This document shows positions 1,488-60,961 of a DNA stretch of 64,000 bases, piece after piece. This DNA comes from a virus. Each line of letters opens with the position of its first letter. Within the stretch, counting starts at the first letter, position 1. A program made the position numbers and the translations under genes. The stretch covers positions 34,504-98,503 of the IMG/VR virus record IMGVR_UViG_3300020192_000009. One strand, written 5' to 3'. The notes under the pieces are model-generated. The model saw only the letters and a list, made by a program, of their open reading frames with translations, was not told the origin of the DNA and did not search any database.

Positions 1488-2204
1488 GTGGCGCATAAAG
1501 ATGTCGATTCCGAAGCGGTCTATACCGTGCAAGAGATCCAACAGGTTTTGCGTACGGCACGCACTATAGGCACGCTTGCTTTCACATTGACAGCATGGTG
1601 CTACGAATTTGGCGCACGCACCGCAGAGCCGGGCCAACAGTTGTTGCGTGACGTGGACTTGCCGAACAATCGCGCACGGCCTACGCACCTCAAAGGTGGT
1701 GCTAGCAAGGCCTGGCAGTTCCTGATGCCCAATTGCCAAGCAGCCTTACCCCTGTGGCTTGCAGAACGCGAAACGCATATCAGCCAACCCACCCAAGCGC
1801 TTTATCTGTTTCCGGCACGCAAGCCAGGCAAGTGCCTTACTTGTGAAGGGACCGGCCAACGCGCAAAGCAAATGCGCGATGGTGAACGGCGCTTCAAGGG
1901 CCCACGTGTGCCTTGCCATCATTGCGCGGCTACGGGCAAACGATGGGGCATGGACCGCCGCGAAGTGTACGCAATCGTTGCGCCCGTGTTACGCGCAGCG
2001 GGTATGCCAAAGGGCCGCCAGCATCCACACGTTCTGCGCCACAGTGTGATCACACATATGCTTGACGCAGGCGTGGCTCCCAAAGTAATTCAAGAACGTG
2101 TAGGGCATCGCAGTCTGCAAACGACACTCGACTATGTGAAAGCGACCGATGCGGGTCGTGCTGAAGTCATGGGCAAAATGAATGCCCTATTCGCAAAGCA
2201 ATAA
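1488..2204 (+). CDS. Compact tyrosine recombinase (catalytic domain only) with an inserted Zn ribbon
   Basis: GARTAE (R), HLKGG (K), HVLRH (HxxR), VGH, DY; insertion CLTCEGTG...CHHCAATG. Confidence 0.9.
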   Translation: MAHKDVDSEAVYTVQEIQQVLRTARTIGTLAFTLTAWCYEFGARTAEPGQQLLRDVDLPNNRARPTHLKGGASKAWQFLMPNCQAALPLWLAERETHISQPTQALYLFPARKPGKCLTCEGTGQRAKQMRDGERRFKGPRVPCHHCAATGKRWGMDRREVYAIVAPVLRAAGMPKGRQHPHVLRHSVITHMLDAGVAPKVIQERVGHRSLQTTLDYVKATDAGRAEVMGKMNALFAKQ

Positions 2205-2226
2205 CAACAACAACAACAACAACAAC
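2203..2226 (+). repeat. (AAC)8 microsatellite between the recombinase stop and array 1
   Basis: Directly visible tandem AAC. Confidence 0.9.
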
Positions 2227-2292
2227 AAAAGCCAGAAAGTGAAAGTGCCTCCGACCAAGACTTTGGTGTACCAACGACTAAAGCGACAATTT

Positions 2293-3046
2293 GCCGCAAA
2301 GGCTGTGCAATGCCTTTCAAAATTGCAACAGCGCGCAGCCTTGCGTGCCAAAGGCTGTGCAATGCCTTACAAATTGCAACTGCGCGTATATCTTCACTGC
2401 GCAACAAAGGCCGTGCAATGCCTTTCAAAATTGCAACTTCGCACGCGCAGTCTGTGCATGGCCGGTGGCAAAGGCTGTGCAATGCCTTACAAAATTGCAA
2501 CCATGGGGAAAGGCCAGCGCGCGATCTGCTGTGTGACAAAGGCCGTGCAATGCCCTACAAAATTGCAACGTGCGCGTGGTGTTGACCGCGCTACCGCAGC
2601 TTATGCTGTAACAAAGGCTGTGCAATGCCTTTCAAAATTGCAACTTGGACCCGCGGGCGTGGCGCCTGCTGGGCCTGTGACAAAGGCTGCGCAATGCCTT
2701 TCAAAATTGCAACGGATCACCAGCTACCTCTACACCAACGGGTGCGCCCGTGACAAAGGCCGTGCAATGCCTTTCAAAATTGCAACGCGAACTGCGTTCG
2801 CGCCTTGGCGCCAAAGAGGATAGCGTGACAAAGGCTGTGCAATGCCTTTCAAAATTGCAACCGGCATACCACGTCGGCCGCCGCCTCCGGTTTAAGGGTG
2901 ACAAAGGCCGTGCAATGCCTTTCAAAATTGCAACGCGCAAGCATAAGCTGCGCCTCTACGGTCAACACTACGTGACAAAGGCCGTGCAATGCCTTACAAA
3001 ATTGCAAGACGAACGGGCAATATCCAATGTCTTTCAAAATTGTAAC
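2293..3046 (+). CRISPR. CRISPR-like array 1: 11 repeats plus a degenerate terminal copy
   Basis: Repeats start at 2293, 2345, 2401, 2465, 2533, 2608, 2677, 2750, 2825, 2898, 2972; spacers 15,20,27,31,38,32,36,38,36,37 nt; hairpin AAAGGC/GCCTTT; 3' end ATTGCAAC. Confidence 0.9.
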
Positions 3047-3058
3047 AAAGACGTAAAC

Positions 3059-3433
3059 ATGCCCACTAAAAAACCCCGCAAACAATGCACACATTGCCCT
3101 TGGCGTGTGGACGTTGACCCCCACGAGATCCCTAATGGGTATTGCCCCACAAAACACGCCGGACTTAAACGCACGATTGCGCAAGACGCGCATCTTATGC
3201 GAGGGTTACATGTTTTCGTATGCCACGAAACCACTAAGCTGCCGTGTGTCGGTTGGTTGCACAATCAACTTGGCGCGGGCAATAACATCACATTGCGTGT
3301 AGCCGTAATTGAAGGCCGAGTTAACGCCAACTACAAAACCGTTGGCGAGCAACATGAAACATTCGAAGACACTTTACCGGAGCCGCAAAATGGACATGGA
3401 CATGACCGAAACACCAACAACAACGACAGCTGA
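3059..3433 (+). CDS. DUF6283-like Cys-rich phage protein
   Basis: KQCTHCPWR...FVCHE...PCVGWL motif; start MPTKK at 3059. Confidence 0.65.
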   Translation: MPTKKPRKQCTHCPWRVDVDPHEIPNGYCPTKHAGLKRTIAQDAHLMRGLHVFVCHETTKLPCVGWLHNQLGAGNNITLRVAVIEGRVNANYKTVGEQHETFEDTLPEPQNGHGHDRNTNNNDS

Positions 3434-4148: not shown

Positions 4149-4632
4149 CACGCGCAGCGGCAAGGCAACGTGTGTGGCAAAGGCTGGCGGCCCTGCTGAA
4201 ACACGATATCTGCGTAGACGTAGATGTTGAATGGCTGGAAAAGCATGCAAGCCCTGACGGCAAAGGCACGCTGTGCAATCAGCCGCCGTTAAACAGTATG
4301 GATCGCGCATGCTTACGCGCGGCAGCTAGAGACGTGCTCGAAGAATTGACCAAAAAGGCAGAAAAACTATGAAACTTTGGGATTCCCTTAAAAAAGTGTT
4401 CACAAAACAAACGCCAAGATTTGCATTGGGTACGCCCATTCAGTTAACGAAAGACTGTGGGTGCTCGCTACGTTTTGCGGGCCGCATGGGCATTGTGGAA
4501 GGCCAGATCAACCCCAATACATTTTTGGTGCACATTCCCAGTTTACACGCCGAAACCGAAATCGTTATTGTCTGCGCTGCCGGGCTGGCCCCCTTCACAA
4601 ACAACACTGCACTGTTGCACTAGGATTTTTAA

Positions 4633-28775: not shown

Positions 28776-29393
28776 CTAGCCGTCGCGGCGCCCGCCACCT
28801 TTAAAAGGTGTATCGTCGCGGTGCCGAAACACACGAGGCGCTTTTTCAACAGGTACACGGGCCCGCGTATCCGCGCCTGCGACGTAAACAGCGCTTACCT
28901 TGTAAGGCCGCACAACAGACGCACCGGCATCGGCAGGGGCGCCGCTTACCGGGGGTTTACGGTCTTCGGCCCAAATATCACGAGCTTTGGACATTTTTGA
29001 GAACTTAGCGCCAGGAGGCGATCCCGCGGTTGGCCGCGCTTTAGACACTTTGCCTTTGCGGGCAGCGCGCGCATTCGCAGCCCGCTTTACTTCACGTCGA
29101 GAGCCCACCGCTGTTTGACTTTCGGCAAGTTCAGCGCGCAATGTCCGACCCGCGACAGCTTGGTTTTCGATGGCCTTCACGGCTTCAACAGGACTGCCGG
29201 TCACCTCAACAAAGCCGAACCCGCGAGAAATCCCGGTTGCGCGTTCACGCATGATTTTGGGGTTGATTGCAACAACCCCCATGGATAACAACGCTGCCAG
29301 CAACGTTCGTTCGTCAAAGGTTTGGGGCACATTGCCAATGAACAGCCGGGCGGGTGGCTGCTGTGCGGGTTTGCGCTGTGGTTTTGGAAGCAT
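28776..29393 (-). CDS. RRM-domain RNA-binding protein
   Basis: RNP2 LFIGNV, RNP1 SRGFGFVE, GRTLRAELA. Confidence 0.85.
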   Translation of the reverse strand: MLPKPQRKPAQQPPARLFIGNVPQTFDERTLLAALLSMGVVAINPKIMRERATGISRGFGFVEVTGSPVEAVKAIENQAVAGRTLRAELAESQTAVGSRREVKRAANARAARKGKVSKARPTAGSPPGAKFSKMSKARDIWAEDRKPPVSGAPADAGASVVRPYKVSAVYVAGADTRARVPVEKAPRVFRHRDDTPFKGGGRRDG

Positions 29394-29563
29394 TGTGTAG
29401 CCTTTGCTAGTGTTCACGTTGCAATTTTAAAGGCATTGCAGAACCTTTTGGCATCGCTACGATCATCGTCAACATTGCAATTTTGTAAGGCATTGCACAG
29501 CCTTTGTCACCCGAAGGCGAGATCGTCGTTGCAATTTCTAAGGCATTGCACAGCCTTTAATAG
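29375..29563 (-). CRISPR. Mini-array 2: three repeats (29418, 29474, 29528) plus a degenerate copy (29375-29410)
   Basis: Reverse-complement repeat GTTGCAATTT..AAGGCATTGCACAGCCTTT; spacers about 7, 20 and 17 nt. Confidence 0.8.
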
Positions 29564-31391: not shown

Positions 31392-31841
31392 CTACTCGCA
31401 TTCTTTGGTTTCGAGACGTAAGCCGACAAGGCCCAGGGCCAGCCGCGGCCTGTTGTATTGCTCATTCGCATATGTACGTTGTTGGATTTGAAAATCAATT
31501 GGTAGCCCTGTCATTTTCGTACCCAGTGCCGAGAACGCCATGCAAAGCGCCGCCCACTTTGCGTTCGTACAAGCGCGCACAGGATCCCCTAGACCCAAAC
31601 GCGCATACTCGGCATCGTCGAGTATTAAGCGCACGTCAACATCGCGCCATTCCTTGAAGAACGTTGCCGACCCCACAAGATACGGCAACGTACCAAATGC
31701 GCTCCACACTTGTGAACCGAATTCTTCCAAATACAATGCGGCGGGCATGCCAACATGATTTTGGCAAATGTACTTTTCAGGTTGCAATTTTAAAGGTATT
31801 GCGCAGCCTTTGTCACGTCGTTTGTCCTGCGGCTTTTTCAT
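31392..31841 (-). CDS. Minimal nucleotidyltransferase-like protein carrying an in-frame repeat copy
   Basis: YLVGSA...WRDVDVR...IDFQIQ (GS, DxD, D). Confidence 0.6.
   Translation of the reverse strand: MKKPQDKRRDKGCAIPLKLQPEKYICQNHVGMPAALYLEEFGSQVWSAFGTLPYLVGSATFFKEWRDVDVRLILDDAEYARLGLGDPVRACTNAKWAALCMAFSALGTKMTGLPIDFQIQQRTYANEQYNRPRLALGLVGLRLETKECE
31781..31816 (-). repeat. Solo copy of the CRISPR-like repeat
   Basis: GTTGCAATTTTAAAGGTATTGCGCAGCCTTTGTCAC, 2 mismatches to the array variants. Confidence 0.9.
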
Positions 31842-32448: not shown

Positions 32449-34296
32449 CTAAGTATCAGACCAACGTCGTCCAATATCGACATCGACAGGGAATTTAACG
32501 CCATTCCATTCGTGCGTCCAGCACGCAATGATAGCGTCTTTAACTTCTTGCGCTTGCGCTTCAGGGGCACGAACGAGCACGGAATCGTGCCCATTGTGAA
32601 TCAAGCGCGGAGCGCTGCCAACAGGCGCACTTTGATCATAGCGTTGCGCGAAACGCACAGCACCAATACCCCAAAAGTCTGCGCCACCAGACTGATTCGG
32701 AAAGTTACTGACAACCGTAGGGTCAACCCGCCCCATGGGGAACACTTGACGACGCCCTAAGATCGGGCTGCGAATTTCGCCCTGCTGAATCGTGTAATCG
32801 AGCATCTTTTTTTGGAAAAGGCGCAACCCCTGGCAGGTACGGTTAACCTCAATCAAGAATGCGCGCACAACAGCGATTTCAAGATCAGGTTCGTCTTTGA
32901 CAACTGAGAGCCAAAGCGTGTCAACAGAGCCGCCATAGAAACCGCCGTATTCGAGACGTTTGGTCAAATCGCGAAGCTTGTCGCGCCGCTTGCAGTCTTT
33001 GCACTTAGATTTAGGGTCTGCGGGGTTTGGCCCGCAAGCGTGCCCTTTGTGCATGTTGTACGTCGTTACCAAACTTGGGAATTCCCGAGGGAACGCAAGC
33101 ACCCCAAACTGCGTATGAATGTCCCGATCATTCTGAAAGATATCGAGCAAGAACGGATCCTGTGACATGGCCGCAAGCAAACGCGCTTCAAGCTGCGCGT
33201 AATCGGCACCAATCAAGATCTCCCCGGGAGGGGCCGCTATCATCTCGCGAACGTTCGCCGCGCCACCACCAGCACGCTTAGACCAGTTTTGGCAATTGGG
33301 ACTGCTGCCCCAACGCCCCGTAATTTTGTGCACCATCCAATCGGCATGAATCACGCCGTAATGCCGCCCATCGGAAGCTTGCGCGATATCTACGGGCTCA
33401 ATGCCGTCGATAAAGTTGTTCACAGCGCTTGCCGTCAACGTGTACTTGAGCAACGCACGAGCGACTTCATGGTATGCAACGCTTTCAAGCGTTTCTTTGT
33501 CAATCTTGGGCAGGCCCGTCTTCTCTGTCATTTGCAGCAAGGGCACGCCTGCAACACGCAAGATCGCTGCCTGTTGGATCTTGGAGCCAATGTTAATGCC
33601 GCCAATGCAATCGGCAACTAAGTCTTCATCGACTATCGGTGCAGGTGTGAAACTGCCATCAAGCGCTTCCACAACAAACCCACGCGTTGTGTAACTACGT
33701 AACGTTGACGCAATCGGCGCGCGTTCTTGCTGCAGGAGTGTTGCCAAACCATCAATTGTGCAAGGCTGATGCGCAAAAGCTTGATACTTGATCCATTCCC
33801 AAATGGCTTGGCGCAATGCTGATTTTTCTAGCCCTGCCAAAAACTCTTGCTTGCGCAACGTCGCACGTTCGAGCAATGCGCCTTCGTTTGACATGGGCAT
33901 GCCGGTGCTATCAATTGAGCCGCCAACGTTTTCGCCTTTGCGTACGCTGGTTGCCTGAAACTTAGCCACCCAATCAACGAACGCTTCAAAATGCGTATCT
34001 TGCGTGTAGGGCAAGAGCGTTGTTAAGGCCTTGTCGCGCAATTCAACAAGAATACCGCGCACATGTACACGTGCATTCATGTCAACGGGAAGCCCCGCAC
34101 GTTTCATCTGCAACGCGATACGCGCAAGGCTACGGTCTAGGTCGTAAACGGCAAGTGTATTGGTTTTGTGCAACGCTGGTGCTAAGGCCAAGTAGGCGCG
34201 ACACATGCCGAGTACGTCACGCGCGTTATACCGCGCGTCGTCCGGCTTCATTACCAAAGGCACAATATTTCGTGGGTCTGTCTCGCCTGCGTACAT
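32449..34296 (-). CDS. Family A DNA polymerase, C-terminal part (ExoIII plus polymerase domain)
   Basis: YNARD (ExoIII), TGRWGSSPNCQN, ADYAQLEAR (motif A), KRLEYGGFYG (motif B), GHDS (motif C). Confidence 0.9.
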   Translation of the reverse strand: MYAGETDPRNIVPLVMKPDDARYNARDVLGMCRAYLALAPALHKTNTLAVYDLDRSLARIALQMKRAGLPVDMNARVHVRGILVELRDKALTTLLPYTQDTHFEAFVDWVAKFQATSVRKGENVGGSIDSTGMPMSNEGALLERATLRKQEFLAGLEKSALRQAIWEWIKYQAFAHQPCTIDGLATLLQQERAPIASTLRSYTTRGFVVEALDGSFTPAPIVDEDLVADCIGGINIGSKIQQAAILRVAGVPLLQMTEKTGLPKIDKETLESVAYHEVARALLKYTLTASAVNNFIDGIEPVDIAQASDGRHYGVIHADWMVHKITGRWGSSPNCQNWSKRAGGGAANVREMIAAPPGEILIGADYAQLEARLLAAMSQDPFLLDIFQNDRDIHTQFGVLAFPREFPSLVTTYNMHKGHACGPNPADPKSKCKDCKRRDKLRDLTKRLEYGGFYGGSVDTLWLSVVKDEPDLEIAVVRAFLIEVNRTCQGLRLFQKKMLDYTIQQGEIRSPILGRRQVFPMGRVDPTVVSNFPNQSGGADFWGIGAVRFAQRYDQSAPVGSAPRLIHNGHDSVLVRAPEAQAQEVKDAIIACWTHEWNGVKFPVDVDIGRRWSDT

Positions 34297-50964: not shown

Positions 50965-52320
50965 ATGCAACAACATGTAGAACGAATGAAAAATGATCCG
51001 AAGGTGCAAAACGCTCTACTGAATCAAGCGATTCGGAACGACCGCCGCACCACTCGAAAGCCCACCAGCCGTATCGAGTTGGGCTACCAGGAAGAGATGC
51101 AAACCGCTCGTATTTGGGATCGCGAAATGTCGCGACTTTTGGCGATGCATGCAGCGAATCCGTTTAACGATGCCGATGAACGTGAAATTTGCAGCACTAT
51201 TGAAAAACGTTTGCTGTATGCAAATACGCACTTTGCAAAGTTCACTTGCACTCATGGATTGCCAACCGAACGCTGCGTGTTGTGCGTTCGCGCATTTGTA
51301 GCGCAAGACCATCAGCTGTCATGCGTATCGGCGCACCGGGAGGCAGCAACGCATGCCGACCGCGTAGGCGCTTCCGTTGCGTCCGAGATTGAGCTTGGCG
51401 GCAAAGCCTTCACGCTAGTGGCAACACACGCTGATGATGCGGACGCCACAATCACACAAAACGAATTGTTGGCCTTACGCAAACTCGGTGTAGCGCGCGG
51501 CGTGGACACATGGATCTTGCCAGATAGCACAGTGGTCGCTGTGGTCGTTATTGAGGCTTCTGATGAATTAAATCTTATAGGGATCACATGTAATTCAATT
51601 CGTACGCAACCCTTGAGCGATACCACGCAGCTTCGTCGCTTCTATCGGCAGTACCCTGAATGTTTGAAACGTTTAACAGTGCAACGTTGCATGACTGTGT
51701 TCTTGGAACGCAAACGACGTGCCCGCGAAAAAACTAAAGGCACCAGTGTGAACCAAGCTGCCCGTAACGGTATGGCAGCACATGCAGAAATACTCGCCGC
51801 CTTAGCGCCAGAGTTAAAGCCACGTAAGACACGTACGCCCAACATACGAATGAGGCGCAGCAATGGAATCTTTCGGCAACGTGGCCTGCGTATGGCAATC
51901 GCAAGCACTTGTATCGAACACACAAGCCCGGAGTTAAAACAAGCAGTTGCAACACAAGTTGCGCTTGCACAAGCACTTGAAAGTACGTTTACACGTGAAG
52001 ACGCGATCAGCCTTGAAAGCTGGACACGTAATCATGAATTGAATGTCATGCAGCTTGGCGCTGTAGCTTTGCAGGAAGGCCGTACAGGCACCGCTAACAG
52101 GACGGCAATCTTGCTAGGCGTGCTTCGTGGCCAACGTGCGAAGGCCCACAAGCGCAGCAAGCATGCAATGGGTGCCCGCACCCCCGCCGACAATCATATC
52201 GTGCCCCTGCCCGCGTTTGCGAACCACACATGCAAAACGCACAACGCACCCGTTGTGTTCCTTGGCATTGTGAATATCGGTCGCGACGCCACTAACGTTG
52301 CTGCGCTAAACGCGCTGTAA
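50965..52320 (+). CDS. Candidate compact, divergent TnpB/Cas12-like (type V) effector, possibly nuclease-dead
   Basis: RuvC-I-like GVD181TWILPDSTVVAV; basic helix RAREKTKGTS; RuvC-II-like DAISLE351; IVPLPAFANHTCKTH; RuvC-III-like RD441ATNVAALN; directly upstream of array 3. Confidence 0.5.
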   Translation: MQQHVERMKNDPKVQNALLNQAIRNDRRTTRKPTSRIELGYQEEMQTARIWDREMSRLLAMHAANPFNDADEREICSTIEKRLLYANTHFAKFTCTHGLPTERCVLCVRAFVAQDHQLSCVSAHREAATHADRVGASVASEIELGGKAFTLVATHADDADATITQNELLALRKLGVARGVDTWILPDSTVVAVVVIEASDELNLIGITCNSIRTQPLSDTTQLRRFYRQYPECLKRLTVQRCMTVFLERKRRAREKTKGTSVNQAARNGMAAHAEILAALAPELKPRKTRTPNIRMRRSNGIFRQRGLRMAIASTCIEHTSPELKQAVATQVALAQALESTFTREDAISLESWTRNHELNVMQLGAVALQEGRTGTANRTAILLGVLRGQRAKAHKRSKHAMGARTPADNHIVPLPAFANHTCKTHNAPVVFLGIVNIGRDATNVAALNAL

Positions 52321-53147: not shown

Positions 53148-53183
53148 ACGCGTACTCGGCACAGTGTCAACAACTTTGGACAG

Positions 53184-53317
53184 AAAAAAAGCGGCCAAAC
53201 TTTCGTCTGGCCGCTTGCAATGGGCGGAGTACACAGTGATCGGGATGCAACTCCCTTAACCTATTAACACATAGAATGCTTCGATGTAGGATATCGAAAC
53301 GGAAGATCCGCTTTGCA
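53184..53317 (-). ncRNA. Candidate tracr/scout-like structured RNA with its own promoter and terminator
   Basis: TTGACG(53352-47)-N17-CAGATT with extended TG; hairpin GGGA-GUUGCA-UCCC; CAUUGCA; terminator GCGGCCA/UGGCCGC-U7. Confidence 0.5.
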
Positions 53318-53430
53318 AAGGTGAATCTGCCAGTTCCTTAACAGCGCGTCAAGTCTTTTGAACGTTAAAACGGTCAAAAAAGAGGGGATACGTGCGTCTT
53401 GTACACGACGCTAGTTTGTGGTTAAGATAC

Positions 53431-53465
53431 CCAAAAGGCCATGTAACGCCTTTCAGAATTGCAAT
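53431..53465 (+). repeat. Degenerate solo repeat in the 5' UTR of 53474-53755
   Basis: AAAGGCCATGTAACGCCTTTCAGAATTGCAAT. Confidence 0.75.
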
Positions 53466-53473
53466 AAATCAGT

Positions 53474-53755
53474 ATGGCCTTAGTTTTACGTTTTCGGTGT
53501 CCTTGTTGTGGCGCATCGCGTGGTGTTCAGCATTACGGGCTTGATCCTTTGGAAAACGGCGAGGTGTACCTTGGCCGTCCTGAACACACAGTAGAGCGCC
53601 TGCTATTCGAGATAGGGGGTCGAGGGAGCGCGCACGTCGTTGAACGTGGGGCCATCAACCTCGAAGCCGCCAGGGCACTTGCCGCATCTGTACGGGATGC
53701 CCTGGCACAACTCGAAAGCGAGATCGCTGAAGCCGTCAACGCTGCAGGCGATTAG
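53474..53755 (+). CDS. Small hypothetical protein (CPCCG)
   Basis: ORF downstream of TTGTAC-N18-TAAGAT. Confidence 0.55.
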   Translation: MALVLRFRCPCCGASRGVQHYGLDPLENGEVYLGRPEHTVERLLFEIGGRGSAHVVERGAINLEAARALAASVRDALAQLESEIAEAVNAAGD

Positions 53756-54090
53756 GCCGTGGGCTCGTCCGTAGAGATCGCGGATGCGTACAATCCCCAT
53801 AACAGTACAGCTTCAAAAACTGGCGTAAGGAACAGGCCAAGTAAGCCCGCAGCGGCAACGCTTAGCGGCGCCCAAGGCCATGTCACGAGTTGATCTAGCG
53901 GGCGCAGGCCTATGAAATAGGCACCGATGCCTAGCCACCAGCCCGAACACGCGGGGCACGCTAGCAGTTTCCCCACGAAGCCCGTACCAACATTGCCCCA
54001 AAACACTTGCGTGATCTCGGCCCGCGCAATCAGCCAATGTGTTGCTGCCAATAACACGCCCAGGGCCGCAATCTGAATCAATGTGTGCAT
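53752..54090 (-). CDS. DUF1360-like membrane protein
   Basis: LLACPACSGWW within hydrophobic helices. Confidence 0.6.
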   Translation of the reverse strand: MHTLIQIAALGVLLAATHWLIARAEITQVFWGNVGTGFVGKLLACPACSGWWLGIGAYFIGLRPLDQLVTWPWAPLSVAAAGLLGLFLTPVFEAVLLWGLYASAISTDEPTA

Positions 54091-54094
54091 GTGG

Positions 54095-54493
54095 CTAGCC
54101 TTTCCTTACGCGGTCACGAAGTGCCATGCGAAACCGCATGTCTTCGCGGGTTGCGACTTGCCGAAAAGACTCGCATGTAGCGGCGTCTTCGGTGGGCCGT
54201 GCTTCGCGGCGACACCAGCCCATATTCTGTAAATACAGCGTAATCGAAGGCCTTCCCGGGAAATCCTTCACAATGGGCGTTTGGATTGCGCCATTTTGCT
54301 CAATGGTCAGCCCATGCGCTTGAAAATGCTGGGCAAGTTTTTTCTCGTCTTTTTCCCATGATTTGCACATAAAGCACGGATTGCCTTCAATGCCCTTTTG
54401 TAAATCAATGACACCTTTTGCGTTGGCGTCACCGTCGCCTCCTGTAATGCGAACTTTCTGCCAATCGGTTGTTTTTTCATTGTTGTCGCTCAT
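54095..54493 (-). CDS. Cys-containing hypothetical protein
   Basis: CFMCKSW...GWC...TCESF. Confidence 0.6.
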   Translation of the reverse strand: MSDNNEKTTDWQKVRITGGDGDANAKGVIDLQKGIEGNPCFMCKSWEKDEKKLAQHFQAHGLTIEQNGAIQTPIVKDFPGRPSITLYLQNMGWCRREARPTEDAATCESFRQVATREDMRFRMALRDRVRKG

Positions 54494-54543
54494 TGCGGTT
54501 GGATGTTATGCAACACAATGCCAATACACAATGACAAAAAGCG

Positions 54544-54572
54544 TTGACATTGCAGTGCTAGATTCTTAATGT
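54544..54572 (+). promoter_or_regulatory. Sigma70-type promoter
   Basis: TTGACA-N17-TAATGT upstream of 54583. Confidence 0.55.
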
Positions 54573-54582
54573 TTGCCCCAAC

Positions 54583-56784
54583 ATGGCAGTCGGCGAAAGC
54601 GCGTCCCCAAAAGGTTCACCGGATCTAAGTAAATTGCAGGCAATGCAAGATCCGATGGTTGTTGTCACCAAAGGCCGGAAAGGTGCAAGTCGCTCAATTC
54701 TTGCGGGACAACGGCTTAAAGTGCCGGATATCCTGGCATTGCATAAAGATTTGCCATTGAGCTTTGGCCCTGGCATTTACAAATTTGAGGTTACCGATGC
54801 TGCTGGCGATGGTACCGGCAAAGACGCATGGACGGCCCAGCTAGGTGGCGAAGTCGGGGAAATCCCAACGCTTCCTGTGGTTTCTAATGAATTCGGCGAA
54901 GGAGCTTTTCCAATGACTGTGGTTGCTAATAGCGTGACACCTCCGACAATGAGCGCCGCCAATGCGGCTGCAATGGGCGTCCCAATGCCCCCCGCGCAGC
55001 CGACAATGCCAATAGGCATGTCAATGCCCACGTCAATGAACGGCGGCATGGGTGGCATGTCCCCCGGCGCAATGGAAGGCTCCCGGCAAATCGGCCCTGG
55101 CTGGTGGTACAACGAAACGCTAGGCATGCTGATTAACCGTAATGGTGAGTTGCACGCTTGGCGCACTGGCATGCCGCTGCCAGGCTCTGCCGTTGCTACG
55201 CCACCTGCAGCATCACCATGGGGCGCTGGCGCTATGGCTGGCGGACTTCCCCCTTGGGGCACAATGCCGGTCACCGAGGATCCTAGACTTGTGCAACTTG
55301 AGGCGCAATTGCGTGAAGCACGCGAAGACGTGAAAGAGCGCGCACGGCAAGCCGAGTTGCAGGTTTTGCGTGATGCAATGACCAAACTCGCAGACGCGTT
55401 TTTAGCAAAGCCCACGGGCCCCTCTGAAAACGAACGCGCGTTGCAGGCCCAAGTGGAAGCACAACAGCGTGCCACCGAGACACTACGCCAAGAAAGTGCA
55501 CAGCGTGAGTTTGCGCGCCAACAGGACGACAATCGTCGCCGCGACGAAGATGCACGACGCGTTGAATTCAATGCGGTTGTTGCAAACCTACAAGCGCAGA
55601 TCAAAGAGGGGAACACCTCTAAGGTTGATCCGATGATTACCATGATCACGCAAATGATGAATGCACAACAGACGGCAAGCACCACAATGCTCCAAGCCGT
55701 GCAAAACGCGGCGCTTAATGGTGCTGAAGTTGCTCGTGAAAGTAATCGTCAAATAATTGAGCGGTTAAGCAGTTCACAAATGACACCTGAGCGCATGATG
55801 GACGTGCTCAAGGTTGCAAAGGATCGTGGGCCTGAAGCCGAAATGGGCAAGCTACAAGTTGGCATGTTCAAGGATTTGCTTAACATGTCGCAAGACATGA
55901 ACAGGCAAATCATCGACGCCAATTCAGGTGGACAACAGCCTGTGTGGGTGGGCTTGCTGCAACAGACGCTTGAAAAGGGCGGGGCCATTGCGCAACAACT
56001 TGCATTGACGCGAGCCAATGAAGTTGCGCGCCAGGAGCGCCAAGAACGTGAACAGCGGAGGCAAGACGCTATTGAACGGCAACGACGCCTGGAACAAACA
56101 ACAACGCCTGCGCAAGCACGCACGCAAATCGCTGCAGTCGCGTCTGCCAAAGCACCCGCTAAAGCAGTTGACGCGCGTACATCCAGCCAAACGGAACGTG
56201 ATGCCATTGCAGCACGTATGTTCCCCACGGCTACACAGGGCAGTGCTGCAGCCGAGCGTGATGCCGCAGCCGCTACAGTCTTTCGAGCCGCTGACCATGC
56301 GCCCCTGCATGCCGTAAGTGACATCGAAGACGGGGAAGACGAAGAGTATGAAGATGGGGAAGACGAAGACGAGGAAGACGAAGAAGACGAAATTGTAGCG
56401 GCCAAAGAACTTGGTGTAGACGTAGCCAAAATCAAGCCAATGGACATTTCCAAAGTCTCGCCTGCGGTGATCCGCAAGCAGATCAAAAAAGTGTCTGATG
56501 CTGATTTCTTCGGGGCGTCTTGGCCGCATGTGCAAGACCTACGCAAATCGATCATGGCTGGTGAGATTGAACCCGAAGCCGCAGCAACGTTTATTGCGCA
56601 AGCATGCGCGCAGCTGCAAAGCTTTGGGCAGGTGCCGCCTGCTGTGGAATTGCTTTTCACAGGGCACATTGACATTGCAATCGAGCGGTTAGCGCCCGAT
56701 GCACCTGCCAGGTTTCGCACACTCTTGATCGCTCTGGTGCAAGAAGGCATCGACAACGCTGCGCCGCCTGAAAGCGGCAACTAA
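54583..56784 (+). CDS. Large coiled-coil protein with Met/Gln/Pro-rich and acidic tracts, function unknown
   Basis: 733-aa ORF with heptads and a poly-D/E tract. Confidence 0.75.
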   Translation: MAVGESASPKGSPDLSKLQAMQDPMVVVTKGRKGASRSILAGQRLKVPDILALHKDLPLSFGPGIYKFEVTDAAGDGTGKDAWTAQLGGEVGEIPTLPVVSNEFGEGAFPMTVVANSVTPPTMSAANAAAMGVPMPPAQPTMPIGMSMPTSMNGGMGGMSPGAMEGSRQIGPGWWYNETLGMLINRNGELHAWRTGMPLPGSAVATPPAASPWGAGAMAGGLPPWGTMPVTEDPRLVQLEAQLREAREDVKERARQAELQVLRDAMTKLADAFLAKPTGPSENERALQAQVEAQQRATETLRQESAQREFARQQDDNRRRDEDARRVEFNAVVANLQAQIKEGNTSKVDPMITMITQMMNAQQTASTTMLQAVQNAALNGAEVARESNRQIIERLSSSQMTPERMMDVLKVAKDRGPEAEMGKLQVGMFKDLLNMSQDMNRQIIDANSGGQQPVWVGLLQQTLEKGGAIAQQLALTRANEVARQERQEREQRRQDAIERQRRLEQTTTPAQARTQIAAVASAKAPAKAVDARTSSQTERDAIAARMFPTATQGSAAAERDAAAATVFRAADHAPLHAVSDIEDGEDEEYEDGEDEDEEDEEDEIVAAKELGVDVAKIKPMDISKVSPAVIRKQIKKVSDADFFGASWPHVQDLRKSIMAGEIEPEAAATFIAQACAQLQSFGQVPPAVELLFTGHIDIAIERLAPDAPARFRTLLIALVQEGIDNAAPPESGN

Positions 56785-56806
56785 CAACGCGATTGTCAGG
56801 TGCCAT

Positions 56807-57254
56807 GTGCGCGTACCAGGACAGTTACCAAAGCGGCGGAAGTTCGAGCCGAACGATCCGCATGCGGAAGGTTGGGAGGTTGCCGCAGCTGAAGGGCTGC
56901 GTACAGCGAATCCCTACGGCGCGTATACGGATGATGCGCGCCGATGGACCGATGGCTACAACGAATACGTTGAGACTGAAGACCAATGCGCGGATTGAAG
57001 CTGCGCGAAGCATGCACGTTTGATATTGTGAGTGTATGTTTAAATTAAAGCGCCCAACAATGATCCCAAAAGGGTACGAGCCTATGTGCCCCCTTTCCGA
57101 AGGCTGCGACGCCGCTACCTTCGGAAAGTCGCGGCTGTTGAACCCCTACACAGTTGGCACGTACGAGGCTTCTGAATGGGACAAGGGCTATTTCATGATG
57201 GTGGGGGATCGCGATGCGTCCGATCCCGACCCTGATGATGCGTGTGCGAATTAA
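56807..57254 (+). CDS. Two tandem Rmf/CrpP-like small proteins (56807-56998, 57036-57254)
   Basis: EG..A...G.....NPY......W..GY motif in both. Confidence 0.55.
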
Positions 57255-57568
57255 GCGGCACGTCGCATGCAGTGTTCACATGCATGCCAATCAAATGCAA
57301 TGCATGCGGAACACCAACCTACGAAACTTCAGGCATTTATGGCGAGGTGCCTCTATGCGAACGTCACCACAATGAAGCGGTGCGGGTCCTTGGGGTTACA
57401 GCGCGGTGGGGAAAACCGGCTGCTATCGTAGTTGAAAGCCGTGTCTCATTCGCGCGCCCACAACAACGGAAAATTGCGGACAATCAAAACGTGTGGCTTG
57501 GTTACCGTTGGACGGGCCATTAACCTTCGCGTGTGTTGCTGCCAAACGCGCGATCCGTCAATTCAGTA

Positions 57569-58697
57569 GTTGCAATTTTGAAAGGCATTGCACAGCCTTT
57601 GTCGCTTCGCAGGGAAACTCACAAAACGCAGGAGGTTGCAATTTCTAAGGCATTGCACAGCCTTTGCTACCCACACAACCTGCACCTGTCGTTGCAATTT
57701 GAAAGGCATTGCACAGCCTTTGTCACGCGCTTGCCGTGGTTGCAATTTGTAAGGCATTGCACAGCCTTTGTCACGGGCTAACGCAAATTCGTATTGCATT
57801 GTCGTTGCAATTTTGTAAGGCATTGCACAGCCTTTGTCACGCTTGGAGTGCCGCCAAGAAGCGCCGACATCTCTTCGTTGCAATTTCTAAGGCATTGCAC
57901 AGCCTTTGTCACCTCCATCGCATGTGGCGCTCACTTCGTGTATGTCGTTGCAATTTTGAAAGGCCTTGCACAGCCTTTGTTGCTTCGCAGGGAAGCCCTA
58001 AAAAACGCAGTTGCAATTTCTAAGGCATTGCACAGCCTTTGTCACGCGCTTGCTAGGTGGAGTGGCTGCACTGGTGTTGCAATTTTGAAAGGCATTGCAC
58101 AGCCTTTGTCACTCTTCAGTTGTTGCAATTTGTAAGGCATTGCACAGCCTTTGTCGCCGACTATTCCCCGCGCTCAATAAATGATGCAGTACTTTGGTTG
58201 CAATTTTGAAAGGCATTGCACAGCCTTTGTCGCATCGAGCACCTTCAAACGTTGCAATTTTGTAAGGCATTGCACAGCCTTTGTCGCTTCGCAGGGAAGC
58301 CCTAGAAAACGCAGTTGCAATTTCTAAGGCATTGCACAGCCTTTGTCACAAGCGTTGCAATTTTAAAGGCATTGCACAGTCTTTGTCGCAGCCTTGCACG
58401 AGCTTGTCTTCGGTTGCAATTTTGTAAGGCATTGCACAGCCTTTGTCACTGCTTGTCGTGGTTGCAATTTTGAAAGGCATTGCACAGCCTTTGTCACCCG
58501 CTGAGCCCGCGCGAGTAGCGTCTGCTCATGGCGTTGCAATTTCTAAGGCATTGCACAGCCTTTGCTAGAAGAGATCGGCGGCTTCAGGTTGCAATTTTAA
58601 AGGCATTGCACAGCCTTTGCTAGATCACATTTTCCCATCCCGCCATTCGTTGCGACGATGTGTTGCAATTTTAAAGGCATTGCACAGCCTTTGCTAG
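57569..58697 (-). CRISPR. CRISPR-like array 4: 19 repeats
   Basis: Reverse-complement repeats from 57569 to 58662; spacers in + order 29,20,12,29,36,34,26,30,9,39,17,26,4,23,11,35,19,38 nt. Confidence 0.9.
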
Positions 58698-58699
58698 TG

Positions 58700-60961
58700 T
58701 TAACTGTCAATATGGGAAACTAGGGCTGCAGCCGCCTCAACTTCAATTGCCAGCGTGCTGCGACAATGCACACAATGGCGTAACGCTAACAATGGCGTGT
58801 TATCCGCATCTAGTTGAATGCCACCTGCCACTGTGTGTGCAAGTAGCGCGGCAGTGGAGGCGCAGACTTGTTCGTGAAAAGCTGTTGTGCATACATGTGA
58901 CGACGACGGATCAAAGTGAAACATGAAAGGTCCTCCCAGCCACCAGAGCGGCGTAAATGTGTCTCATGGCTGTAACGTATAAGATTCGGCTTGTTGGCTA
59001 AACTGCGCGACAAACGCCAACATGCTTCCGGGCGACTTCACTGTGCACGCCACGCCGCGCACAATGGTCTTTACGCTTTGCCTCTGCGAAGGTGTCAAGC
59101 TTGCAGGTATACGTTTTGAGTCCTGGCTTTCATGTTCCACTGTGATCCGTCGTCTGTGTAAGCTTACGCGCGTGCGCGCCGCATGTCGTGAATATGTGCA
59201 TTATCGGGATAGATTTCAATCTGAATGTTTGCGAGCAACGCGTTTATTTGACGCTTGTATGCCGCAAATTGCCGTGGGGTTACTGCGTCTGTAGGCGCCG
59301 CTACACCAGGGTTGGCAAGGGCGAGCCATGTTGCAACGAAAGCTTCTGAGGCAAGGCCCGCATGCGCCAGTACGCGAGATGCAACGTTGTTGCGCAATCT
59401 GACTTGTAGATCTTGCAATGTGTTGGTGACGCATAACACGTCTTCCTTGGGGGATCCTGCAATGCGTTCGACGGCAAGGTAAGCGGGCATGTTAATCTGC
59501 AACAATCTGAAGGCCCAATTCGCCTTCGAGTTTCAGTTCTGCAATGACACTAGATTCGGCGTCAAGCCACACTGTGGGGCCTTCTGCGCCGCAAACTTCG
59601 CTTGCCAGTTTGCGGGCTTGGCGTGCATTCATGGCGCGAATGATCATACGGAAAAATTCGCCAAAGTGGATGCCTTTTTCGCGGGGCCGTCGCAGGATGA
59701 AAAGGCGTGGAGTTTTTGCTTGTACTATCAATTTTTTTGGCATGGCGTGTTCCTCGTGGCGTGTTGTTGTTACTTTAACGTGTGAATGTCGATGCTTCGC
59801 CACGTTTGCGTGACAGGGTTGAACGTCTCGAATGTGGCCAGCGCGAAAGTGCGTGTTCGCCAGCCTGCAAGAACTTTGCGCGCGTAGGCTCCCGGGTCGC
59901 TTACAAGGTCGCCCCGCTTTGTGGGTGCATCACGCGTAAACGTTGCGGTTGCAGGGTCTTTTGTGCGACGCGGAACGTCTGTAAACGCAATGTCACCGTT
60001 GCGCTTTACGCGTCTGTATTTGATCGTTGGCCGTTGCGCATCGGCATCAACCAACAGTTCCCCTCGATAGTTTCGCAGTAGACAACGTATACGCATGTCA
60101 AACCTTCCAGGGCTAGAACCAAACGCAGGACACAAGCGCGCCAAGGGCCAAAGCGGTAAGTACGCAAGTGCCTAAGCATGTTTCGGGGTCCCACAAACGG
60201 TTCATTGGGCACGCTTTTGTTGAGGGGTCTCCGCTGTGACCCAACCGCGCGCCATCAATTTTTCCCAGATACACGTATACACGTTGTAGCGCGTTTCGAT
60301 GCCTGGGCGCACCTTCGGGCAGGGTAGCGGCAGTTCTTCAAGGTGCGTGCATCTGTCTGCAATCGTCACCGATCCCGACATTCTTCGCGTGATTGGATTC
60401 ATTGCACCGTACACGTTGCCAAAGTTTGGCACAAACAACGTATCGCCCACTTGCGGCTGTAGCCCTTCGTTGTTTCGCGCGTGTATTGCAACGACCGGCC
60501 AATGTTTGACAATAACAACGGGGCCGCTGGTGCTGCGAAGAACGTCAACAACAACCAAAGCGTTATCCAACATTCGCAGCGTGCACCCTACGTGCAGATC
60601 TTCGACTTTAAGAAGCGTCATTGGGAGCCGTCACTTTCAATTTGCCGCCAATTTCACGGAAATAATCCGCTTCGATTTTCGTGAGTGTGGCCACACAGGC
60701 ATCAGGCCCGTCGTATTCCACCGTGAAGGGTTGTTTGAGGCTCAACCGCTTGTCGTATGCGGCTTGGGCTGCAGCGTCCATGCGATTGTATTTGTGTTTG
60801 TTGTATTCGTGTTTGTTGTGCGTGTCCAGGCACAACACGCCGCTTCGTTGCATCAACAGGGTCACGCGTTGCCGTCGTGTCATGACCACACCGTTGTTGC
60901 GAATCAAAGCATCCAGGTGCATCGTTGCCCTAGCGCTTTGCGCGTTGGAAAGCCTACTCGG
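58700..60961 (-). other. Small hypothetical genes (58700-58924 Zn-finger-like, 59164-~59490, 59492-~59743, 59770-~60096, 60202-60621, 60608-~60961)
   Basis: Contiguous - strand ORFs; starts approximate. Confidence 0.5.

Follow-up and report, generated by a model that had tools for sequence, protein, structure and literature searches.

Type V-M (Cas12m) CRISPR arrays of a microbial-mat virus and their probable change by recombination between repeats

The subject of this study is a stretch of 64,000 nucleotides (nt), here called the window, which covers positions 34504-98503 of a linear IMG/VR virus contig of 98.5 kb and contains at positions 57569-58697 an array of short repeats. Our findings indicate that this array is probably one of at least five type V-M (Cas12m) CRISPR arrays of a microbial-mat virus that has a genome of about 107 kb and carries Cas12m, and that these arrays change by ordinary recombination between their repeats. 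The preliminary description of the array, in which the system was not recognized as CRISPR-Cas12m, had proposed that cassettes are shuffled through an invariant palindromic core. "Cassette shuffling" is real as a description, and is best explained by ordinary inter-repeat recombination acting on constrained guide handles.

Repeat units and arrays

The repeat unit in the array under study, read on the minus strand, is GTGAC AAAGGC TGTGCAAT GCCTT, followed by a variable linker and ATTGCAAC, for a total of 36 or 37 nt. The core pattern occurs 86 times in the window, where chance would give 0.36 occurrences, and the whole 98.5-kb contig holds 53 repeat copies, which make up five arrays (A to E) and a number of solo or degenerate copies. 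A metagenome scan with the repeat returned ten contigs, eight of which are variants of the virus (flanks 84-98.5% identical), the others being L138 and L133. The repeat-bearing features are listed below, in window coordinates unless stated otherwise.

57569-58697, minus strand: array E, 19 Cas12m-type repeats and, between them, 18 spacers of 4-39 nt; each spacer begins after the ATTGCAAC that closes a repeat
Contig 33232-33775, minus strand: array A, outside the window
2293-3008, plus strand: array B, 11 repeats with spacers of 15-38 nt; variants in L129 and L135
29418-29563, minus strand: array C, 3 repeats between an NDK gene and a gene for an RRM-domain protein; variant in L130
52503-53147, plus strand: array D, 11 repeats with spacers of 9-37 nt, inverted relative to array E and 4.4 kb from it
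53429-53465, plus strand: degenerate repeat, 281 nt past array D, with both stems retained and one pair a U-G wobble
3027-3046, plus strand: 3' half-repeat remnant, 12 nt ahead of the ATG of a DUF6283 gene (3059-3433)
31781-31816, minus strand: solo repeat, in the direction of the surrounding minus-strand genes
57946-58045, minus strand: copy of a 100-nt repeat-spacer-repeat duplication, containing spacer E12 and 96% identical to the other copy
58250-58349, minus strand: the other copy of this duplication, containing spacer E7
58700-58924, minus strand: open reading frame (ORF) of 74 amino acids (aa), ending in a stop codon 2 nt ahead of array E's first repeat; no Pfam family

None of the five arrays has a leader. 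All of them, together with the repeat pair of L138 and the intact solo repeat (31781-31816), are co-oriented with their flanking genes. Since array E is leaderless and lies 2 nt from the stop codon of the 74-aa ORF, it appears to be inside a minus-strand transcription unit. Intervals between repeats measure 3-39 nt in 43 of 45 cases, and the other two, of 263 and 281 nt, could each hold a small ORF; 18 of the 66 distinct spacers are 36-38 nt long. The 263-nt interval, in array A (contig 33476-33738, 766 nt before the window start, with an 84-aa ORF), is absent from L137, whose three repeats at this locus enclose two different spacers of 21 nt. No Rfam family matched, and a search of IMG/VR for the exact core gave no match.

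Variation counts were made over 49 arrayed repeats. The 5' pentamer has 16 alleles, with 0.39-1.37 bits per position, and the linker has six (TCAAA in 21 repeats, ACAAA in 10, AGAA in 7, TAAA in 6, ACAA in 4, and TCAA in 1), which bears out the earlier statement that variation is concentrated in the first five nucleotides and the linker. The core and the ATTGCAAC end were correctly described as almost fixed: the core carries at most 0.48 bits per position and is identical in 38 of the 49 repeats, and the end is intact in 46. Pentamer and linker together occur in 27 forms, the commonest of which is held by at most 8 repeats. For comparison, in six arrays adjoining cas12m in other viral contigs, 50-93% of the copies are identical to the modal repeat; in the three of these that were measured end to end, spacers are 35-39 nt long.

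Some of the finer patterns in the preliminary description did not rise above chance. Neighboring repeats had been called rarely identical, and adjacent identical repeats number 0-1, against 0.2-0.75 expected from permutation; an alternation of linkers had been seen in what was termed array 3, and same-linker neighbors gave P values of 0.2-0.8 when the same repeats were permuted. That the same variants recur across arrays proved true of the linker alleles, which show no array specificity (P 0.41); the pentamers are array specific (P 0.0003). The three members of the TGCGTTTT spacer family (58313-58288, 58009-57984, and 57634-57606) do each follow an AGAA-type repeat, as had been reported, and precede the pentamers GCGAC, GCAAC, and GCGAC, respectively.

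Pseudoknot fold of the repeat

In the CRISPR RNAs (crRNAs) published for Cas12m, a 5' tail precedes the 5' arm of stem I; 1-2 nt further on comes the 5' arm of stem II, next the 3' arm of stem I, and, after a linker, the 3' arm of stem II, with AC and the spacer last (PMC11013384, Table S5). The virus repeat has the identical layout: gugac, AAAGGC, ug, UGCAAU, GCCUUU, caaa, AUUGCA, and ac. It forms an H-type pseudoknot in which stem I is AAAGGC paired with GCCUU(U), and stem II is UGCAAU, in the loop of stem I, paired with AUUGCA, followed by the terminal AC and the spacer. The repeat also aligns with the published ApCas12m repeat (GUGACAAAG..UGUGCA..CAAA..UGC.AC), the two having an identical start, GUGACAAAG, and compensatory changes in both stems. 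Of 7 other repeat families taken from viral cas12m loci, 6 had the pseudoknot layout when examined by script. In an alignment of 12 sequences, 91.7% of cells are paired, a value that none of 500 shuffles reached; the shuffles gave 75.8% and slid controls 29-44%. In the same alignment, 8 of the 12 pairs, including all 6 of stem II, have changed on both sides.

On its sequence and predicted fold, the repeat is a type V-M (Cas12m) CRISPR repeat, the core of which is stem I plus a strand of stem II of the crRNA pseudoknot. The core and the ATTGCAAC end would be invariant because they are the paired parts of a handle that Cas12m must recognize; in the predicted guide handle, the 5' pentamer and the linker, which vary, are left unpaired. 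The proposal that the core is a recombination site was not substantiated, the core being part of a crRNA pseudoknot with compensatory changes in unrelated V-M repeats.

The layout of the fold fixes the sense strand of the repeat. We also considered the opposite orientation (GTTGCAAT...GTCAC, then the spacer), which is favored by a start resembling those of the Tf and Un Cas12m repeats and by the retention of that side in truncated spacers. It was ruled out by the family pseudoknot and terminal AC, which occur only in the GTGAC...ATTGCAAC sense, by the Ap alignment, and by the U-G wobbles of degenerate copies, which fit that strand alone.

A Cas12m gene tied to the virus genome

L138 and L133 each carry two overlapping repeat copies 30 nt past the stop codon of a gene for a 735-aa protein.

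L138:355-2562: cas12m gene, encoding a 735-aa protein with a Cas12f1-like TNB domain (PF07282, 37 bits)

Searches with phmmer matched this protein to the PDB entry 23vw "Cas12m" (E 5.3e-55), to UnCas12m4a (1.4e-20), and to Cas12m2 (3e-18), and its RuvC D-E-D triad (D422, E611, and D697/D699) is invariant among the three closest homologues. The final 70 nt of L138 recur exactly as nt 1-70 of the virus contig, and the 3'-open ORF of the former continues in frame into the 5'-open ORF of the latter to give 274 aa. Joined, the two sequences measure 107,166 nt, which fits the CheckV completeness of 88% for the 98.5-kb contig. Given this overlap, reading frame, and joined length, we take cas12m to belong to the virus genome. 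The five arrays lie roughly 42-102 kb from cas12m in the joined genome.

The two repeats behind cas12m (L138:2593-2662) overlap by 5 nt, GCAAC of the first being the 5' pentamer of the second, so that there is no spacer between them. Past them are a ribosome-binding site and the start of a gene for a C-type-lectin-domain protein. Cas1 (PF01867) is absent from the 98.5-kb contig, in a search that detected its positive controls; Cas2 and Cas4 were not searched separately. A Pfam scan of large L138 ORFs identified none of them as Cas1. Two other ORFs were rejected as effector candidates: one of 451 aa upstream of array D (50965-52320, plus strand), which has no match in Pfam, PHROG, or NCBIfam and no BLASTP similarity to Cas12m, and one of 733 aa, which likewise shows no similarity.

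Rearrangements among variant genomes

Among the variants, six that are nearly identical to the virus revealed rearrangement of the arrays. In L136, array E has 26 repeats, seven extra units lying between units 2 and 3 of the array in the window. Repeat 3 of the window array (CTAGC...AGAA) joins the 5' end of L136 repeat 3 to the 3' end of L136 repeat 10 as an exact hybrid, which identifies an insertion or deletion with its exchange point inside the core. In L134 the six units E12-E17 are replaced by two others. In L135 the spacers of array B run in the order 3, 2, 7, followed by two new ones; each keeps its downstream pentamer, and two of the three exactly keep their upstream linker. In L129 a copy of spacer B1, from the oppositely oriented array B, takes the place of the second short spacer in array A. 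Internal duplicates are present in variant arrays as well.

To quantify this linkage we took all homologous spacer pairs with a differing neighbor, which are not independent events. The half-repeat allele nearest the spacer was retained (linker in 21 of 25 pairs, pentamer in 15 of 22; chance, about 0.22), and the allele on the far half of the same repeats was not (pentamer in 12 of 25, linker in 4 of 22; chance, likewise about 0.22). Pentamer and linker within one repeat show no association (P 0.10). These counts and the L136 hybrid uphold the mobile unit as it was first proposed, a 3' half-repeat plus spacer plus the next 5' half-repeat, with exchange in the core. The claim that repeat variants travel with their spacers holds for the near alleles and is not strict, since linkers also switch beside unchanged spacers: with both flanking spacers the same, array B repeat 3 has TCAAA here and AGAA in L129, the repeat before spacer E4 has TCAAA here and TAAA in L136, and the repeat before E11 has TCAAA here and AGAA in L134. 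We read these switches as short conversion tracts.

The pattern is unlike duplication of a leader repeat by Cas1, as had been supposed. Spacer order differs between variants, growth is non-polar in arrays B and E, and the contig has no Cas1. Judged by the outcomes named as fatal to it, independent segregation of variants and spacers and polar growth at a leader end, the cassette idea survives. Shuffling by itself, however, fails to explain how spacers were completely turned over in arrays A and D among relatives with 84-94% identity. Array A has no spacers in common with such relatives, and array D shares its last two units alone, at the distal end, with L132. In four mat runs the Logan contigs break inside the array into pieces of 76-149 nt, which confirm single repeat-spacer-repeat junctions and can neither phase the array nor reveal circles.

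Spacers and targets

Where short spacers share sequence with longer ones, the shared part is at the 3' end, beside the following repeat, in 7 independent cases and at the 5' (seed) end in 1; the spacer at window 58196-58158, compared with L136:929-949, is an example of 3' sharing. Short spacers look like seed-side truncations. No microhomology was seen by eye at the junctions of truncated spacers. The seed-side loss might come from selection that favors inactivated guides, from acquisition of spacers by some as yet undescribed route, or from an asymmetry of constraint, the 3' end of the repeat being essential and the 5' pentamer not.

Searches for targets covered the virus and its relatives, phage records, and IMG/VR. 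In the virus contig and L129-L138, outside the arrays, there are no self-targets beyond chance 10- to 16-mers, and no target of arrays E, B, or D was found among 50,697 phage records. Degenerate patterns of three spacer families gave 0, 0, and 3 matches in IMG/VR, the three being chance matches with the variable middle mismatched. A search of prokaryote genomes for a host copy of the repeat, using a degenerate 18-mer that is too loose for 596 Gb, gave single chance matches, and none of the matches listed had ATTGCAA downstream.

Several spacers overlap one another. Spacers B5 (2570-2607) and B10 (2935-2971) are partial reverse complements, with 10 and 13 nt matching around a 6-nt mismatch block, and spacer E2 (58587-58569) matches, in reverse complement, the start of E14 (57876-57841). 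Others overlap at offsets, namely B5 and L132_5, as well as E13 and L137_1. It looks, from these overlaps, as if several guides sample one target region on both strands.

Mechanism of array change

The observations support a model in which the arrays are probably transcribed with phage operons and cut into guides by Cas12m, each guide being predicted to have a 5' handle that ends in ...AUUGCAAC and is followed by the spacer. Phage genomes recombine often, and a RusA-like resolvase is encoded nearby. The main route of array change would be homology-driven exchange, by replication misalignment or by recombination between repeats, with partners in the same array, in another array, or in a co-infecting relative. 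Exchange is expected where identity is longest, over the 19-nt core, or over 31-32 nt when the linker matches; crossovers would thus fall in the core because it is the longest identical stretch. When exchange occurs inside the core, a spacer retains the 3' half of the preceding repeat and the 5' half of the following one, and whole blocks of spacers could in this way be deleted, duplicated, reordered, or copied to another array. With no Cas1-Cas2 to recopy one leader repeat, neutral repeat variants would persist and serve as markers. Rearrangement of this kind probably needs no dedicated recombinase.

It is established that recombination or misalignment between repeats can delete, duplicate, and reorder CRISPR units (PMC8047081; see PMC4524480), and V-U and V-M loci are typically without adaptation genes (PMC11013384). 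Cas12m of characterized relatives binds DNA without cutting it and silences it, as the viral protein may also do. Spacers of 36-38 nt, the norm of the family, must have been acquired at one time, perhaps by a host Cas1-Cas2 acting in trans.

An enzyme that could in principle drive the exchange is encoded next to array B.

1488-2204, plus strand: small tyrosine recombinase of 238 aa, Xer/FimB-like (PF00589, E 9.5e-17), 88 nt upstream of array B

A dedicated, integron- or shufflon-like system, in which this recombinase acts on the 6-8-6 core and excises, inserts, or inverts units of half-repeat, spacer, and half-repeat, would account for the location of the gene between the inverted arrays A and B, for a core made of 6-bp inverted arms and an asymmetric 8-bp center, for exchange points that map between pentamer and linker, and for the spacer copied between arrays A and B. 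A Logan contig of 5428 nt, from run X4, also runs from the reverse complement of the D-E segment (53148-57598) through a single repeat into the right flank of array E (58660-59000), as a D/E inversion would. We nevertheless consider such a system very unlikely. The joint in the X4 contig passes through 32 nt of identity in an assembly made with k=31 and could be a mis-join, the flank crossing appearing in one run only. The palindrome is fully explained as a Cas12m crRNA stem and shows covariation in unrelated V-M repeats, which lack a recombinase of this kind. Known arm sites of tyrosine recombinases, as in loxP, FRT, and dif, are about twice as long as its 6-bp arms. Against the NCBIfam Xer, invertase, and integron models the recombinase falls far below every curated cut-off (TIGR02249, 40.5 bits against 265; NF011946, 24.7 against 435). 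It adjoins only one of the five arrays, the excision of 40-76 bp as double-stranded circles is implausible on physical grounds, and linkers change also where spacers do not. No close relatives of the recombinase were found in IMG/VR, and no homologues near 12 other viral cas12m loci.

The irregular spacers invite another interpretation, that the arrays are decayed or repurposed and the units are sites of Cas12m binding or processing in phage mRNAs, serving as operon punctuation, for titration of Cas12m, or as decoys against a host V-M system, with spacers as neutral filler. Spacers of 3-39 nt, many shorter than 17 nt, loss of their seed side, the failure to find targets, and the intergenic, co-oriented placement of arrays and solo repeats, often a few nucleotides from stop or start codons, are all consistent with this. 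On the other hand, the mode of spacer length, 36-38 nt, is the norm of the family, the overlaps at offsets and on opposite strands (B5, B10, and L132_5; E13, L136_5, and L137_1; E2 and E14) look like sampling of real targets, and the complete turnover of spacer sets between relatives suggests ongoing gain. On balance this interpretation appears unlikely.

We therefore retain the view of Cas12m arrays rearranged by ordinary recombination between repeats, and the following points weigh against it. The cas12m gene lies outside the virus contig, tied to it by the 70-nt overlap and the reading frame, with no single read or contig across the joint. The listed holders of the virus sequence include no RNA runs, and no protospacer was found for any spacer in the searches described above. 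Only about a quarter of the spacers have the canonical length, and the heteroduplex of 17 nt seen in Cas12m2 exceeds the length of 9 of 43, so that many units may not guide anything. The excess of suffix over prefix sharing among spacers (7 to 1) is not predicted by simple repeat-to-repeat exchange. The hybrid repeat after spacer 2 in L135 is, on account of its core variants, not derivable by a single crossover from the two parental repeats seen here. Homologous and site-specific exchange are, moreover, indistinguishable inside an invariant core.

A broader scheme would combine several of these elements. Cas12m phages that lack Cas1-Cas2 may hold a pool of guide cassettes, reshuffled among operon arrays and co-infecting relatives, in which the inverted pairs A/B and D/E, perhaps with the FimB-like recombinase, swap or invert blocks and seed-side deletion switches guides off. 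If true, this would be a recombination-based reprogramming of a silencing regulon, distinct from canonical adaptation; we regard it as speculative and quite unlikely.

Comparison with known systems

By effector and repeat, as judged from sequence, the virus is a member of type V-M (MmCas12m/Cas12m2, GoCas12m, and the Ap, Tf, and Ms systems; PMC10442227, PMC11013384), and it departs from that type in the placement and regularity of its arrays and in repeat homogeneity. It has in common with the type a homologous effector, a pseudoknot repeat of 36 or 37 nt with a terminal AC and a 5' end near-identical to that of the Ap repeat, full-length spacers of 36-38 nt, and the lack of adaptation genes, as far as Cas1 is concerned (Cas2 and Cas4 not having been searched separately). 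The Cas12m family needs no tracrRNA (PMC10442227, PMC11013384). The virus effector is larger, at 735 aa against about 600 aa for the family, and would, by analogy with the type, process its own pre-crRNA and bind DNA in a PAM-dependent manner without cutting. In place of an array adjacent to cas12m with regular spacers of about 35-39 nt, two overlapping repeats alone follow the gene, and the arrays are found away from it, at five loci over about 100 kb, leaderless and inside operons. Most spacers are shortened, and the repeats are highly polymorphic at unpaired positions.

Phage-encoded Cas12m has been described in the myxophage MV-1, claimed as the first of its kind, with one regular array of 8 spacers (preprint, bioRxiv 10.64898/2026.09.14.751636). 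We identified 12 further IMG/VR contigs with Cas12m relatives (L142-L153), 10 of which have a downstream, co-oriented array, mostly with regular spacing. Like the virus studied here, in which the search covered Cas1, MV-1 and these contigs encode Cas12m without cas1, cas2, or cas4 and have no identifiable targets. They differ in having a single array directly downstream of cas12m, mostly homogeneous repeats, and spacers of 35-39 nt (three loci measured), whereas the virus has two overlapping repeats at cas12m and irregular arrays elsewhere.

Rearranging CRISPR arrays (Garrett 2021, PMC8047081; Kupczok 2015, PMC4524480) share with those of the virus the deletion, duplication, and reordering of blocks, the preservation of repeat boundaries, and a tendency to change inside the array and not at its leader end. 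In the virus, repeat polymorphisms map the exchange points to the core, and exchange occurs between arrays too. Exchange appears to be the dominant mode of change here because there is no adaptation module.

Integron attC arrays and the R64 shufflon (Rci/sfx) resemble the virus arrays in having a tyrosine recombinase beside short, imperfectly palindromic sites and in changing the order of their units. The attC sites of integrons, however, are 57-141 nt long, flank gene cassettes, and are served by IntI; the virus sites are 36-37 nt long, most of the "cassettes" between them are 3-39 nt without a gene, and the recombinase is by its scores neither IntI nor Rci. A shufflon needs inverted sites within the cluster, whereas the virus repeats are direct within each array and only whole arrays are inverted (A relative to B, D relative to E).

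RNA anti-CRISPRs (Racr), reportedly described by Camara-Wilpert et al. in 2023, are said to be solitary repeat units in phages. They share with the virus the occurrence of repeat-like RNAs with short or no spacers in the noncoding DNA of a phage. The virus carries its own cognate effector, and its repeats are therefore not simply mimics of a host array.

Implications

V-M and other former V-U systems lack adaptation genes, which raises the question of how their arrays are built and renewed. The virus is a natural experiment in this respect: neutral markers stand on either side of a constrained RNA fold, making exchange points readable, and co-occurring variants reveal deletion, duplication, and reordering of guides and their transfer between arrays. 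It adds to the very few phage-encoded Cas12m systems that have been described, with an unpublished architecture of five leaderless arrays inside operons and mostly shortened guides. It is a hint that a non-cutting CRISPR effector may serve phages in regulation, or act on the phages' own transcripts, instead of providing classical immunity. Tools for CRISPR interference and base editing are a further reason for interest in this family of compact effectors.

Other features of the genome

The virus sequence was found in twelve microbial-mat metagenome runs, all from one year. Its genes include those for a family A DNA polymerase, an SF1 helicase, UDG, ThyX, an SNF2 protein, NDK, and thymidylate kinase, and its kinship to isolated phages is remote (PolA identity below 26%).

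Several minor observations concern regions outside the arrays. L131 lacks about 170 nt of window 4160-4331 between flanking aligned blocks that are 95% identical, an indel outside the arrays. Directly after the stop codon of the tyrosine recombinase gene is a (CAA)n microsatellite of about 8 units (window 2204-2228). The 733-aa ORF contains tandem GAAGA-rich repeats of 15 and 9 nt (window 56325-56402) that encode an acidic tract rich in D, E, and G. A 494-aa ORF on the minus strand of L138 (6963-8447), with weak matches below cut-off to intein-splicing and LAGLIDADG models, may be an intein-containing gene. The RRM-domain gene directly downstream of array C (window 28776-29417, minus strand) encodes a 213-aa protein of the RRM_1 family (E 3.4e-6), which is unusual for a phage.

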